From the NCBI GenBank assembly GCA_039818205.1, contig JBCBUK010000014.1, positions 1 through 64,000 on the forward strand: DNA of 64,000 nt, in the 5' to 3' direction. The stretch comes from Verrucomicrobiota bacterium (lineage in GTDB: Bacteria; Verrucomicrobiota; Verrucomicrobiia; Opitutales; Cerasicoccaceae). This document shows, piece after piece, positions 36,001 to 42,000 of the stretch. Every line of letters starts with the position of its first letter. Positions within the stretch are counted from its first letter, which is position 1. The position numbers were made by a program.

Positions 36001-39000
36001 CCATTGTAACCCTCATTACCTTGGGAACACTCTTCGCCTACCACAAGGAGCTGGAGCTGGCTTCAATCGACCCAGAATACGCCCAAGTCATCGGTGCACG
36101 GCCAAACCAACTCCGAACCCTCCTCTTGGCGCTGACAGCCCTGAGCGTCGTGACCGCCGTGCGGGTGGTGGGCGCTCTGATGGCGACGGCTCTGCTGATC
36201 ACGCCCGCCGCTGCGGCTCTGCTTTGGGCCCGCTCCATTGTTGGAGCCATGCTTATTGCGACCGGGATATCAGTGTTCAGTGCCGTTTGCGGGCTGATCG
36301 TCTCCTACCACTACGATTTAAGCTCGGGCGCATCGATCGTACTCACCGCAACGGCTTGCTTTGGCTTGAGCTGGCTGTTACGAGTCGTGCTCAAACGATA
36401 GGCGATACCTGGCATAAGAAACGTTCAGGTAAACTTGGGGCGAATCGGCGCTTTACACATTGCCGTTGCGCCCTACCGTAATGCGTTTTGCATAAGTATC
36501 AGCCTAGCCTATGAAGCAACGGACCATATTGCGTGACGCCTCCGTCAAGGGGAAAGCTCTTCACACTGGTGAAGAGGTAACGCTCACCCTCAAGCCAGCC
36601 CCAGAAAACCACGGAATCGTTTTCCGCCGCGTCGACCTCTATGGAAAGCCTGAGCTAAAGCCCAACGTTTCCCTGGTCTCGGACGTCGTTCGCAGCACCA
36701 CGATTTCCAATGGGCACGCCAAGGTCCACACCATTGAGCACGTGTTGAGCGCGTTGCACGGCTGCGCCATCGACAATGCTGTCGTCGAAATGGACGCCTC
36801 CGAGCCGCCAATTCTGGACGGATCGGCAAAACACTACGTGAATCTCATTCAGGAGGCAGAACCCGTCGAACAGGAAGCCGAGCGGGAATACATCGAGCTG
36901 GTCGAACCCGTCAGCGTGACCAAAGGCGCCAGCTCGCTCATTGCCCTGCCCTGCGACCAATTTAAAATCACGTGCACCAGCGCGGATGACCGCGGAATCC
37001 ACACCCAGCACATTTCCCTGGATATCGATCCAGAGTCTTACGTGGCGCAAATCGCTCCCGCGCGGACATTTACTATCTACGAAGATATCGAGGAGCTCCT
37101 GAAACTCGGCAAAATCCAAGGCGGTAGCCTGGACAGCGCAATCGTAATCAAGGGTGACAAAATTCTCTCCAAAGAGCCCCTTCGGTTCAAAGAGGAATTC
37201 GCCCGACATAAAGTTCTCGATGTCGTTGGTGATCTGATGCTTCTCGGCAAACCGATCAAGGCCCACATCGTGGCTGTTCGGCCCGGACACGCCCTGAACG
37301 CCGAGCTCTGCAAGGCAATCAACGAGTCGCTGGAGAAGGCACAGAAACCCAAGAAATCCGCCGCGAAAGGCCCCCAGCAGGTGATGTCTCATGAGACGGC
37401 CCTGGATATTCGCCGGATCCTAGACACACTGCCGCACCGCTATCCATTTGTCATGATTGACCGCGTCATTGACATCCCCAATCAGGATGAATTGACCGCG
37501 ATTAAGAACGTTACGATCAACGAACCCTATTTCATGGGCCACTTCCCTGGGCAGCCGGTGATGCCGGGCGTCCTGCAAATTGAAGCGATGGCCCAAGCCG
37601 CCGGCATCCTGATGCTGCGCCGGATCAGTTCGGAGAACAAAATTGCGTTCTTTATGAGCTGCGATAAGGTGAAGTTCCGCCGTGCCGTCGTGCCCGGTGA
37701 CGTCGTCGAAATCCATGTGAAGCTGACGAAGAACCGTGGCAATAAAATCGGAGTGGCTGCCGGGACCTGTAAAGTGAATGGAAAAGCGGTTTCGTCGGCT
37801 GAATTAATGTTTACGATTGTCGACGCTGGTGGCGATATGTAAGGTGTAAACAGAAGAAGATGCCCGCAGACATTCACTCCACCGCAATTGTCGAATCTGG
37901 AGCGCAAATCGCCGATGATGTTGTAATTGGTGCCTACGCCTACATCGGCGCAGACGTCACCCTCGGACCGGAAACCGTCGTTCACCATCACGCGACCGTT
38001 GAAGGCAAGACCATCCTTGGCGAGAAAAACGAAGTTTGGCCCTACGCGCTGATCGGAGGCAAGACTCACGACCTCAAGTTTGAAGGCGGAAAGCCCGGCC
38101 TCAAAGTGGGTGACCGCAACGTTTTCCGCGAATACGTCACCGTCCACACCGCAACCAAGGCCGACGAATTCACCACCCTAGGCGACGACAACGTCGTCTT
38201 GGCCTATAGCCACATTGCTCACGACTGCCAGATCGGCAACCACCTGATCATGAGCAGCCACGCAGCCTTTGGTGGCCACGTGATCGTGGGAGACAATGTC
38301 AACGTGGGCTGGAATGCCGGAATCCATCAATTTTGCCGCATTGGCGAACACGCCATGATCGGTGCCTGCGCCAAAGCGGTGCAGGATGTCCCACCGCTCA
38401 TGATCGCCGACGGCAACCCGGCGGAGATCAAGACGATCAACAAAGTCGGTCTTGAGCGCTCTGGTTTTACCTCGGAAGACATCACAATCGCCCGAGCAGC
38501 CTTCAAAATCCTCTATCGCGAGAGCCTCAACCGCGCTCAGGCACTGGAGAAGCTACGGCAGCACGACCAGGTAGAAGACCGCGTGATCCAGCTGATTCTA
38601 GGCTTTGCCAAAGGCAGTGTCCGCGGCTGGAGCTAGGGGTCATTAGCCTGGCTCATAGAAAATTGCAGAATCATTAATACTGCCAAGCACTGAGAGATTT
38701 GAGACTGATTTCTTCGGCCTGTGTGAAAATCTCGCAACATAAGCACCTGCCTATCAAAAGATAAGGAATCTTGAGCCAAACTTTTACTTGCTTTGGCAAA
38801 GTGACTTTGCCATACAAAGAGAATGTCCTTTGGCCTGCACAACGCCCTCCGCGAAGTGCGCGAGTTGAAACACCGAATCCTCGCCAAGCAGCGCTTTAAA
38901 GGGTATTCCGGCCGGGCTCGAGCCCTGGGGGGCTGTGTCGCATTCGCGGCTGCCCTGCTCCTACAAGGTGGCTATTTCTCCGTTTCCTTGACCACTTTGC

Positions 39001-42000
39001 TCGTAACCTGGGGGCTAGTCCTGGCAGCCAGCCTCGCCCTCAACTACGGTGCGCTGGTGTATTGGTTTCTCTATGACGAGGAGGTCGGGCGCGATTGGTC
39101 CAAGCTCAAGCCAGCTTTGGAAGTCATTCCCACGTATGTAGTTGGAGTATTTGCAACCGTAGCCTGTATCGACCAGCGAGCGCCCGAGCTATTGCCAGGG
39201 ATCTGGATGTCCCTCTACGGCCTGGCGAATCTCGCCTCCCGCCATATACTGCCGCGGCGTATTGGCTGGGTTGGCGCGTGGTATGTTGCGACTGGGGCAA
39301 TATGTCTCGCCTGGCCAACCTGGGCCTGGCATACGCCGCTGGCCATGGGCAGCGCGTTCTTCATCGGAGAATGGCTAGGCGGATTGGTTTTACACTATGA
39401 CGAAGAGGAGGGCCGCACGGTTTGGTCCTTCTTTGGACTCCCAAATTTCAATCAGAACTATGAGTAAGAAAGACGAAAATCCCTACGACAAACTCGCCCG
39501 TATTTTCCACGAGCCAAAGCGCCTGGCTATGATCGCAGCCGTGGCCGATTCGGAGAAAGGGCTGAGCTTCAGCGAGATTAAAGAGGCCTGCGGCCTGACG
39601 GACGGCAACCTGAACCGCCACCTGAAAATCTTGGAAGAGGAGAAGATCGTCATCGCGAAAAAGTCACTGGCCGGTAACCGCGCTCGGACGATTGTCAAAC
39701 TGTCTGCCTCTGGCCGCCGCAAATTTGTAAAGTATCTGGAGTCGTTGGAATCCGCACTTAAGCAAGCCGCCCAATCGGTCGGTGCGAAGTCGCCTGGCAA
39801 GACCACACTGCTCAAAGGGCTGACGACCTAACCAGCCCTCAACAATTCGGCGCTCGGCGGAGTCTCGCCGGCGCCTCAGAAACCGGATCCGGCTGATACC
39901 ATCAATGCTCCGACCAGCAGAACGATGACGAATACCATGATCCAGACGAGCACAAGGGAGACAATCCGGGCGATGATGGCGATTGCGAATGCAGTCCCGG
40001 GCTTTTGAACATCGGTCAGCCCAATAATCAAGCCCATCAAAATACCCAGCTTGATGAAATAGAGGACAAATCCGAGGTGGAATTCAAAGTAGTCCACCGC
40101 GACGTCAACACCGATCGAGGCAATCGCCATGAGTAAGCCGACCAACAGGATCTGCCGCCACATGACCGGGAATCCTTTGACTCCGAAAGCGATCTTTAAA
40201 ACAAGCGTCGTGACGACGAATTCAACGAGGAAGCCGATGGCAAACACGATCAGGAGCCCCCACCAAGGCAGCGGTTCGTCCTCCCAGTCCTCGTCAAACT
40301 CACTATACTCGCCATATTCATCGTATTCGCCGCTATCGATGTCATCGAGCATCTGCTCAAATTCCGCAATAGCATCATCAACCGACGTGTCCTCGTTGCC
40401 AGCCGCTGGCTCGAGTGCCGGCTGCACAACCGGCTCCGCCACCGGAGGAGCGACGGTTTTAGGTGATGGTGGGTCACGAACAACAGCGGGTGCCTGCGCT
40501 TCGGCTTCTTCTCCCTCAACGGGAATGGAGGTCGCGCGATAGTTTTTGTCGACCGAGTCGCCGTTCAAGCGCCACCCCTGGCCGGATCGGTAAGTAAACT
40601 GGCCCGATCCATCAGGCGTCGTATACTCCATTTTGATGCCCTTGGTTTTGAAAACACGCCCATCGCGCAATTCAATGGTATTGCCACCATAGAGCATAAA
40701 GGCGGCGCCTGACCGCGCCAACTCGGACGATGGCGGCCCTAAAGTCTCGATCACCTCCGCGGCGGTCATTCCGCGAAACACGGGCCCCGTTTCACTCTGG
40801 CCAAAGACCTGAGGACCCATTATCGAATAGAACAGAAGTAAGACTAGGGTTAAATAGTTGCGAGACATTGTCGATAATCCTTACTGATAGAAATTAAACG
40901 CGCAACGCGTCTTTTTTAGAATCATGACCCCAAACCCCGACGAATTGTACATGCAGCAGGCGATCGATACCGCTATGCGCGCATGGGGCGACACGCATCC
41001 CAACCCGATGGTTGGCGCGTTGATCGTTAAAAATGACGAAGTTATCGCTGAAGGTTGCCACCTTCGCGCCGGTGAATCTCACGCAGAAGTTGCGGCCTTT
41101 ATGGACCTGGGCTTTGAAACCTGCGAAGATTCCACGCTGTATGTCACACTTGAGCCCTGCTCGACCCACGGTCGGACTGGCCCCTGCACGGAAGTCATCA
41201 TCGAAAGCGGCATCCAGCGAGTGGTCGTTGGCGCCATCGATCCGAACCCCAAACACGCGGGCGAAGGCCTGACCATCCTCCGCGAGGCTGGAATCGAAGT
41301 CGCCCATGGCGTTTTGGCGGAAGAATGCGCTGAAATGAACTTCATCTTCAACCATGCGATCGTGAACGACTCCCCGCTGATGGCGGGCAAGGTCGCCATG
41401 ACCATGGATGGAAAAATTGCCACCCGCTCCAGCCACTCCCATTGGGTTACGGGCACCGAAGCCCGAGAAGATGTGATGCGCTGGCGCCGGCTTTTCCCCG
41501 CAATCGCGGTCGGGGCTGGCACCTTGATAGCGGACAACCCGTCGCTGACCGCCAGATTACCCGGAGTCGATCCATTTTGCCACACACGCTTTGTGTTCGA
41601 TCGCCAACTGCTCTCGGTCGATCACCTTGACAAACAGGTATTTAACGACGAGTGGCGGGAGAAAACTGTAGTTATCACCCAATCGGATGCCTCTCCCGAG
41701 GGCCTGCAGAAGCTCAAGGACCACGGTATCGTCTGTTGGCAACCGAGCATCGAACCCTCGGAAGCGTTTTTTCACCAATTCGAACGGAAATGCCTCGATC
41801 TCGGCATCAATGGCGTCCTGGTCGAAGGCGGCAGCGGCTTGCTCAGCGATTTGCTCGCCGAGAAGCGCCTGGACTACCTCCTCTCGTATCGCGCTCCCAA
41901 AATCCTCGCGGACGACCAGGCCCTCCCAGCTTTTCGCGGCATAACTCCCGATAAGATTTCCGACGCAATCACGCTCGAGGAAATCAAACATACTGTTTTT

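Follow-up and report, generated by a model that had tools for sequence, protein, structure and literature searches.

A predicted operator of an HTH_34 winged-helix regulator is dispersed, mostly within genes, across the chromosomes of Cerasicoccus and two sister genera

The window analyzed here comprises 64,000 nucleotides of a Verrucomicrobiota bacterium (contig JBCBUK010000014.1, positions 1 to 64,000; assembly GCA_039818205.1, hereafter the source genome). It contains a two-gene operon preceded by a pair of predicted operators, and a further predicted site inside another gene:

16960..16976, no strand: predicted dispersed site in the 3' end of the gene at 15667-16992, matrix score 20.8
38786..38802, no strand: predicted weaker operator copy, 18 bp upstream of the main site, matrix score 10.3
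38804..38820, no strand: predicted main operator ACTTTG-N5-CAAAGA (RCTTTG-N5-CAAAGY type), ending 3 bases 5' of the ATG at 38823
38823..39467, plus strand: hydrophobic membrane protein of 214 aa, of no known family
39460..39831, plus strand: HTH_34 (PF13601) winged-helix regulator of 123 aa, single copy, Pfam E 4.9e-15

The regulator matched PF13601 with 55.9 bits (curated cut-off 27), and no close paralogue was found in the source genome. Its structural model (pLDDT 85.8) has a predicted winged-helix fold, nearest to PH1061 (PDB 1UB9) and next to MarR proteins; a profile search also placed PH1061 first among solved structures (E 9e-14). Among the homologues compared, the helix-turn-helix motif does not vary. 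The 214-aa membrane protein had no match in Pfam or NCBIfam and matched only unnamed clusters in the Atlas. A crude scan gave at least three hydrophobic segments, and in 68 of 77 distant loci a full-length homologue precedes the regulator. This protein is a candidate sensor or anti-repressor. SdpI-SdpR offers an analogue of a membrane protein that relieves a repressor, and by this analogy the co-encoded protein probably senses stress and would lift repression. Predicted together with the regulator dimer, the membrane protein scored 0.40 (best control 0.00). Of 157 solved pairs, 116 reach this mark, as do 2 of 215 mismatched ones; among these, scores up to 0.60 account for just 18 of the solved pairs yet for both mismatches. 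The runs showed at least 86% contact agreement with a partner pLDDT of at least 71, and weakly suggest a physical pairing of the two.

The operator pair, weaker copy included, recurs in all four congeners that possess the regulator; the conservation of the operator described in the survey was borne out. A promoter scan found no sigma-70 promoter at the operator. Across phyla, the motif was found at 73 of 80 regulator loci (controls, 3-6), and the base preferences there, including a CTCTG half-site variant, match those of the source genome; the link between motif and regulator proposed in the survey is thus strongly supported. Four genomes of an unexpanded sister genus had been listed there as lacking an operator. 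This did not hold: in all four it heads a longer operon, ~2.6-2.7 kb 5' of the regulator, so that the operator in front of the HTH_34 operon is conserved across lineages. Judged by this co-location in sequence, the motif is very probably the operator of the HTH_34 repressor, with binding predicted. In most bacteria, the repressor would govern a small envelope and lipid regulon via few sites. In paper listings that cover few subscription papers, no description of an operator or regulon of the HTH_34 family was found, and listings for the motif, for Cerasicoccus and for an Opitutales gene transfer agent (GTA) showed none either.

Genome-wide, CTTTG-N5-CAAAG occurs 94 times, compared with 5-19 times at each of 15 other spacings. 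Among spaced palindromes built from any 5-mer half-site at spacings of 0-20, it ranks first in the genome. The over-representation seen in the survey was therefore confirmed, and the set proved larger than stated: the CTCTG variant adds 43 sites (1-4 at other spacings), and a scan with a matrix built from the source genome alone gave 165-193 sites, variants included (6-19 in spacing-shifted controls). The survey's count of 77 coding sites became 75 of the 94 strict sites with our own gene calls, so that the mostly coding location stands; 128 of 165 matrix sites likewise lie in coding sequence. Against the 75 strict coding sites, 20 synonymous-codon shuffles gave 2-9 each, which rules out a codon artefact. 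Intragenic sites are at least 10-fold over-represented and frequently kept between species, the site at 16960..16976 being kept at the same codon position in the congener G003. An effect of A+T-rich islands was ruled out by the G+C content (0.536 around sites, 0.527 genome-wide). The outer pair on the sense strand is A-C in 20 and G-T in 19 cases. This lack of a G-U bias argues that the motif acts as a double-stranded DNA site and, together with flanks that are unrelated between sites, rules out an RNA hairpin, terminator or REP-like repeat. An identity as parS, bound by ParB, was excluded by a separate, canonical parS-like pair on contig C10, the 16-bp parS consensus differing from this motif. 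A scan with a dif-like pattern found no match.

The expansion is limited to one clade of three genera with 29-290 strict sites. As the survey had reported, it is clade-restricted: all 6 Cerasicoccus genomes have 70-290 strict sites, the two further expanded sister genera 72 (G009) and 29 (G010), and the remaining 8 family genomes 0-4. Close relatives range from 1 to 290 sites. The expanded lineage is marine. The regulator alone is insufficient for expansion, since 50 other regulator-bearing genomes have 0-9 sites; the unexpanded sister genus has kept both regulator and operator. No diagnostic regulator residues were separable from ancestry, and a basic C-terminal tail was dismissed as the innovation because many unexpanded homologues carry one. 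Replacement of a lost LexA was likewise rejected, as lexA is present in 16 of 16 family genomes; in the source genome recA, lexA, uvrD and priA carry no site. The low counts in other regulator carriers would fit a different clade-specific protein of the same specificity binding the dispersed sites, as would the congener G006, which has 128 sites and no regulator match in a 72% complete genome. We regard such a protein as highly improbable. The regulator has no close paralogue in the source genome, the base preferences match those of the cross-phylum operator, and parS-like pair and lexA are separately present. Moreover, dispersed sites share the 18-bp pairing of the operon's own operator: in the expanded clade 32 of 46 neighbour matches have it, against 1 of 8 at regulator loci from unexpanded genomes.

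The sites would have been gained from the ancestor of the three sister genera onwards, inside genes and at junctions, via point substitution where the protein tolerates change. Identity to the outgroup is 0.43 at sites, 0.56 in flanks and 0.64 gene-wide; DNA uptake sequences likewise arise by substitution where residues are poorly conserved. Codon-compatible substitution without insertion, as claimed in the survey, held in part: substitution was seen, but site gain often requires a non-synonymous change, and in hrpB a tandem copy falls within a lineage-specific insertion. Site-bearing genes recur between genera whose gene order differs. A site-bearing homologue in the source genome was found for 9 of 17 such genes of G010 (1.0 expected) and 6 of 25 of G009 (1.5 expected). 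These 13 recurrent genes contain 9 cross-genus sites at the same codon and 14 at a different codon, and recurrence without a shared site amounts to only ~6 gene cases (~2.5 expected). Sequence comparison thus indicates that much of the cross-genus recurrence is inheritance.

Within the source genome, sites are enriched at short co-directional junctions (13, 4.2 expected) and in the 30 bp that follow a stop codon (22, 4.7 expected). Divergent promoter regions contain only 3 (9.2 expected), and 19 genes have two or more sites (4.3 expected). The top three deciles of codon adaptation, a proxy for expression, hold 3, 7 and 8 sites, the other seven 13-25 each. Carriers include the essential housekeeping genes ligA, murF, ddl, fabI, pheT and metH, besides exopolysaccharide, peptidoglycan, efflux, protease-inhibitor, cofactor and DNA-repair genes. 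Ten DNA-repair genes have sites; the lean towards repair is an impression only, given that there is no annotated control set. No clear strand bias was seen (65 leading and 57 lagging sites on 2.28 and 1.76 Mb).

The survey had interpreted the sites as a chromosome-binding mark. The regulator would then be a sequence-specific nucleoid protein like the TetR-like SlmA, a bridge between clusters or a membrane tether via its partner, and sites would accumulate in weakly transcribed regions, which tolerate them. SlmA/SBS, Noc/NBS and MatP/matS also have palindromes mainly in coding regions, and SlmA derives from a transcription-factor family (PMC3116907). In closed G010, with dnaA taken as origin, 4 of 47 sites fall in the terminus-side quarter (p 0.004); counted as clusters, the figure is 4 of 35 (p 0.04). 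Contigs of the source genome range from 0 to 9 sites per 100 kb, those with dnaA and parS being above average, and the sites in essential genes are also in line with a mark. The reported concentration near dnaA holds in G010 as a count (16 of 29 strict sites within 0.75 Mb), but 7 of these 16 sit in three operon clusters, and the second quarter has 7 sites, the third 14. Among 126 of the 290 sites of G003, all six contigs of >500 kb have 1.7-3.4 sites per 100 kb, without any large site-free stretch. SBS, NBS and matS, in contrast, either avoid the terminus domain or occur only there, and they target no genes (PMC3116907). Exclusion in the clade studied here is partial in G010 and was not seen in G003; sites form operon clusters, and the local role as operator persists. 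Recurrence in the same genes despite differing gene order, and tenfold copy-number variation among relatives, also speak against a mark. Avoidance of highly expressed genes would fit any bound protein that hinders polymerase and does not separate a mark from transcriptional damping. A chromosome mark is therefore not the best fit, given the clustering in genes, junction bias, recurrence and density on a phage-derived operon. We consider it unlikely, although the terminus-side depletion in G010 keeps it a live rival.

The highest density was found on this head-only, phage-derived operon, to which the survey did not refer, with 13 sites in 9.3 kb (0.3 expected). The corresponding loci of five congeners have 10-18 sites and that of G010 has 4, compared with 0-1 in five genomes of the unexpanded sister genus and 20 other loci of the order. 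The capsid gene itself is site-free in 13 of 13 genomes. Packaging and head genes are mostly single-copy and conserved across Opitutales, and the genus stays together in the capsid tree. In this respect the operon resembles RcGTA and CcGTA (PMC11841831). It differs in its Mu-type portal and protease, and no tail tube, tape measure or integrase was seen within the cluster. Based on its genes, it is a candidate GTA. The operon was ruled out as the cause of the expansion, as it is present without expansion and was not found in G009.

Another reading is molecular drive, in which DNA carrying a bound site is preferentially transferred, for example because the site is a start for head packaging or protects incoming DNA, and sites build up like uptake sequences in Neisseria and Haemophilus. 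Uptake sequences are non-palindromic. They occur in hundreds to thousands of copies and are not a repressor's operator. DUS/USS are likewise lineage-specific coding motifs that were gained at tolerant residues and lean towards repair genes (PMC2817400; bioRxiv 2025.10.24.684340), resembling the substitution pattern and the many repair carriers found here. Drive would also account for the densest cluster lying on the head operon; and since GTA small terminases lack a DNA-binding domain of their own (PMC11841831), there would be room for an adaptor in packaging. However, G009 (95% complete, 72 sites) has no capsid, portal or terminase match, the unexpanded sister genus has both head operon and regulator, and comEC was present in all 5 genomes tested, whether expanded or unexpanded. 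The clumping of the sites and the nature of the motif, a palindromic operator of a cytoplasmic protein, also speak against drive. We judge drive improbable. Equally improbable is its boldest form, a host stress repressor that keeps a domesticated phage head silent while also marking chromosomal DNA for its packaging or transfer, so that the operator spreads by drive and rewrites proteins, uptake-like, via a GTA undescribed in Verrucomicrobiota. Many lone sites in unrelated genes and the tenfold copy-number spread could alternatively reflect decoys that soak up repressor and tune a small true regulon, leaving host genes unaffected; this is quite improbable, as it predicts neither 13 sites on one operon nor the junction bias nor same-codon retention across genera.

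The best explanation, to which we tentatively give a little less than an even chance, is that the dispersed sites form a predicted stoperator-like roadblock array. Intragenic sites, above all on the capsid operon, would probably dampen transcription from within. Dimers would occupy dispersed sites, often side by side at 18 bp, and would most likely serve as roadblocks, reducing read-through in operons of low demand. The main target would be the head operon, followed by the exopolysaccharide, peptidoglycan, efflux, protease-inhibitor, cofactor and DNA-repair genes. As expected of roadblocks, many sites lie within transcription units and not at promoters; an asymmetric site oriented with transcription would also be expected, and the motif is palindromic. 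The L5 repressor of cluster A mycobacteriophages binds many stoperators at promoters and in short intergenic spaces, and is proposed to stop elongation so that phage genes stay silent (PMC9283540); in the source genome, too, it is a phage-derived operon that bears the densest array. These stoperators are 13-bp, asymmetric, oriented and bound by a phage monomer on a phage genome, whereas the source system has a host winged-helix protein and 17-bp palindromes on the host chromosome, mostly within codons. Also comparable are SinR-SlrR in the B. subtilis fla/che operon and the CodY roadblocks cited in the same paper, chromosomal repressors whose intra-operon sites reduce read-through (bioRxiv 2025.01.06.631544). 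Both involve few sites, while the clade studied here has 29-290, clade-wide and with changed protein sequences. Against roadblocks, damping has no obvious benefit in essential housekeeping genes, and the terminus-side depletion in G010 and the share of cross-genus recurrence that is inheritance also count against them. The model does not account for the restriction of the expansion to this clade, the helix-turn-helix being invariant and the basic tail not specific. Sites within genes are frequently without effect: most intragenic PhoB sites are inert (PMC10294691), as are three of five SinR-SlrR sites (bioRxiv 2025.01.06.631544).

An uncharacterised cross-phylum regulator family gains a predicted operator and regulon, and a local operator is seen on its way to a genome-wide system, close relatives spanning 1 to 290 sites. 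The finding bears on whether intragenic transcription-factor sites act, because these are at least 10-fold enriched and were gained at amino-acid cost. Cerasicoccus includes named, cultured species, and the regulator offers a concrete handle to induce the candidate Opitutales GTA.

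The two-gene operon in the window is directly preceded by a pair of palindromes:

38786 and 38804: two palindromic sites, 18 bp apart, directly 5' of the two-gene operon
38823-39467: membrane protein of 214 aa, no known family, first gene
39460-39831: HTH_34 winged-helix protein of 123 aa, second gene

The palindrome CTTTG-N5-CAAAG occurs in 94 copies in the 4.85-Mb genome (G000), versus 5-19 at other spacings, and ranks first among its spaced palindromes. By our own gene calls, 75 sites lie in coding sequences, compared to 2-9 after synonymous shuffling. Admitting a CTCTG half-site variant added 43 sites, and a matrix scan returned 165-193 sites (6-19 in controls). 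Outer pairs that are mismatched on the sense strand were as frequent as wobble ones (20 and 19, respectively), which indicates that the site acts as double-stranded DNA and rules out an RNA hairpin. Also in the window (42688-43934), the C-termini of two adjoining paralogous secreted proteins combine a VPE-type sorting motif with a hydrophobic helix and a basic tail; we take these proteins to be PEP-CTERM-like.

The link between motif and regulator was assessed at the best 80 regulator loci of a genome-collection scan, which came from several phyla and of which the three closest were Cerasicoccus records. Using a matrix built on G000 sites only, the operator was present at 73 loci (70 of the 77 outside Cerasicoccus) versus 3-6 with shifted spacing. 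It was mostly located immediately 5' of the membrane gene or immediately 3' of the regulator, and its base preferences were those of the G000 sites. The helix-turn-helix motif was invariant among 61 regulator sequences, and no close paralogue of the regulator was found in G000. That another protein binds the dispersed sites seems scarcely credible.

Fifty neighbouring genes, hand-picked from 31 of these loci, included CreD, DUF4153, DUF6688, HMG-CoA synthase, undecaprenyl diphosphate synthase and glycosyltransferase plus radical-SAM pairs; 20 had no family match. These families point to a regulon of envelope and lipid genes. Promoter-type sites 5' of a detached DUF4153 gene (L013:12363, in the closed genome G010) and of a VIT-domain gene (G000:C10:55444-55509) likely mark genes that belonged to the ancestral regulon. 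Four genomes of the unexpanded sister genus had been reported to lack the operator; the site is there, heading a longer operon with a DUF4153 gene in it. In that genus the whole operon still sits after the ribonucleotide reductase gene, and the 18-bp operator pair left 3' of this gene (G000:C2:144339, L299; L030:6469-6503; L017-L020) is probably a relic of the operon's former position. A small ORF, missing from the regulator operon of the Cerasicoccus genus, was present in G009, in G010 and in the unexpanded sister genus:

L016:5002-5313, L021:4338-4727, L017:5022-5357: unannotated ORF of ~100-130 aa, separating the upstream operator from the operon gene that follows

The predicted complex of the membrane protein and a regulator dimer scored 0.40, the best control 0.00 (runs agreed in 86% or more of contacts, with a partner pLDDT of 71 or more). 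In the benchmark, the mark was reached by 116 of the 157 solved pairs and by 2 of the 215 mismatched ones; at 0.60 or below, only 18 solved pairs reached it, yet both mismatched ones did. The model lends weak support to a contact between the two proteins.

Each of the six Cerasicoccus-genus genomes had between 70 and 290 strict sites; G009 and G010, which represent sister genera, had 72 and 29, respectively. The remaining eight family genomes had 0-4. In a sample of 251 genomes of the order, the other 244 had at most 11; in a phylum sample of 401, G000 had 69, G268 15 and all others at most 6. The G268 matches listed were all of G+C type, some ~70 bp apart, and possibly belong to an unrelated repeat family. 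Fifty genomes known to have the regulator (50 of the 77 distant loci) had 0-9 sites, and the three expanded genera formed one clade (support 0.85) in an hrpB plus ligA tree of 13 genomes with a single outgroup, from which G001, G006 and G008 were excluded for want of a full hrpB. Judged by these sequences, the regulator is usual and the expansion of the sites is a single, rare event.

In five gene alignments, sites were gained in the genus at columns where the outgroups had none, mostly by substitutions without length change, often non-synonymous. Identity to the outgroup fell from 0.64 over whole genes to 0.56 in flanks and 0.43 at sites; within the outgroup, the same columns gave 0.84, 0.82 and 0.70, respectively. 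Site columns thus vary in the outgroup too, and sites land on tolerant positions. One tandem copy in hrpB lies inside a genus-specific insertion, and the congener G003 alone gained two abutting sites close to the hrpB start. Of the congener sites whose gene has a G000 homologue, 134 in all (loci selected for clusters, congeners not independent), 52 were kept, 62 absent and 20 unaligned. Of 46 cases of neighbouring sites in the expanded clade, 32 were pairs at 18 bp; at unexpanded regulator loci, which usually have a spacing of 32-34 bp, only 1 of 8 was. The pairing suggests side-by-side binding as a derived feature.

Placement among genes was biased. Intergenic sites were enriched at short co-directional junctions (13 versus 4.2 expected) and depleted in divergent promoter regions (3 versus 9.2). 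Within 30 bp past a stop codon 22 sites were found (4.7 expected), 19 genes had at least two sites (4.3 expected), and the top deciles of highly adapted genes had 3, 7 and 8 sites versus 13-25. Annotated carriers include ligA, two uvrA genes, mutS, recD2, fpg, polB, an ATP-dependent ligase, hrpB, murF, murC, ddl, alr, glycosyltransferases, efflux pumps, alpha-2-macroglobulin, VWA and VIT proteins, biotin and molybdopterin genes, fabI, pheT and metH; many had no family match. Among fetched loci, with homologues defined by at least 40% identity, 9 of 17 site-bearing G010 genes had a site-bearing G000 homologue (1.0 expected), as had 6 of 25 in G009 (1.5 expected). In 13 genes with cross-genus recurrence, 9 sites were at a shared codon and 14 were not. 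The densest G009 cluster is a long glycosyltransferase operon. G009:C34 (L347-L350) carries a duplicated stretch of small ORFs with several sites, the copies ~50 kb apart, and one G000 site lies in a single 48.6-kb open reading frame (C1:377972-426583, ~16,200 aa).

The survey's finding had read the motif as a genome-wide chromosome mark. With dnaA taken as origin, the quarters of G010 had 22, 7, 14 and 4 sites and 12, 6, 13 and 4 clusters, a terminus-side depletion of clear significance for sites (p 0.004) but marginal for clusters (p 0.04). All six G003 contigs above 500 kb had 1.7-3.4 sites per 100 kb (126 of 290 sites). SlmA sites, by comparison, do not occur in the terminus domain (PMC3116907), whereas the terminus-side quarter of G010 still has 4. 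G000 contigs above 60 kb had 0.9-2.6 sites per 100 kb with negative GC skew versus 0-9.1 with positive skew (p 0.02), a puzzling difference, given that contigs should be oriented arbitrarily. Two canonical parS-like 16-mers (G000:C10:32127 and 32175) lie near recA, within a gidA/mnmG-like gene named from its translation.

The densest target was a phage-derived operon, whose 9.3 kb hold 13 sites where 0.3 would be expected:

G000:C13:2048-11315 (L032): head-only phage-derived operon, homologues L014, L086-L096, L391-L410

Its genes code for a large terminase, Mu-type portal, protease, cement or scaffold protein, major head protein and fibre-like LamG protein; we interpret small genes without database match for these roles as those of a holin, a small terminase and an adaptor. 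Of the 16 family genomes, 14 had the capsid; in the order it was present in 114 of 251 genomes (90 at E 2e-90 or better), including many reduced ones of 0.8-1.1 Mb. Near it, 20 chosen order loci had the protease in 19, portal in 17 and terminase in 11. G009 gave no capsid, portal or terminase match, and in three congeners adaptor-like and LamG genes were not found beside the capsid gene. By gene content, the operon resembles a domesticated, GTA-like head; conserved across Opitutales, it is a candidate gene transfer agent. Head loci had 10-18 sites in five congeners, 4 in G010, 0-1 in the sister genus and 0-1 at 20 other loci of the order, and the capsid gene was free of sites in 13 of 13 genomes. 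Molecular drive by packaging or uptake (compare PMC2817400) is a distinctly improbable source of the sites.

The sequences establish the motif, its link to the operon of the regulator, its clade-limited expansion, the way sites were gained and their biased placement. If, as we infer, the regulator binds the sites and represses in response to a signal, the dispersed sites would form with it a roadblock array within transcription units. We favour this reading tentatively, by analogy with phage stoperators (PMC9283540) and SinR-SlrR (bioRxiv 2025.01.06.631544). It would explain the junction bias, the clustering and the head-operon array. The fit is poorer for sites in essential genes, and binding sites within genes are often inert (PMC10294691). 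A chromosome-organising role is unlikely. That the dispersed sites are decoys is very unlikely. A literature search of partial coverage gave no account of the operator, of its expansion or of a gene transfer agent in Opitutales, and full-text search of two GTA papers gave no mention of Verrucomicrobia. Intragenic operator arrays as such are already known; what is new is a palindromic host array of such size, which costs amino-acid changes and is centred on an apparently domesticated head operon.
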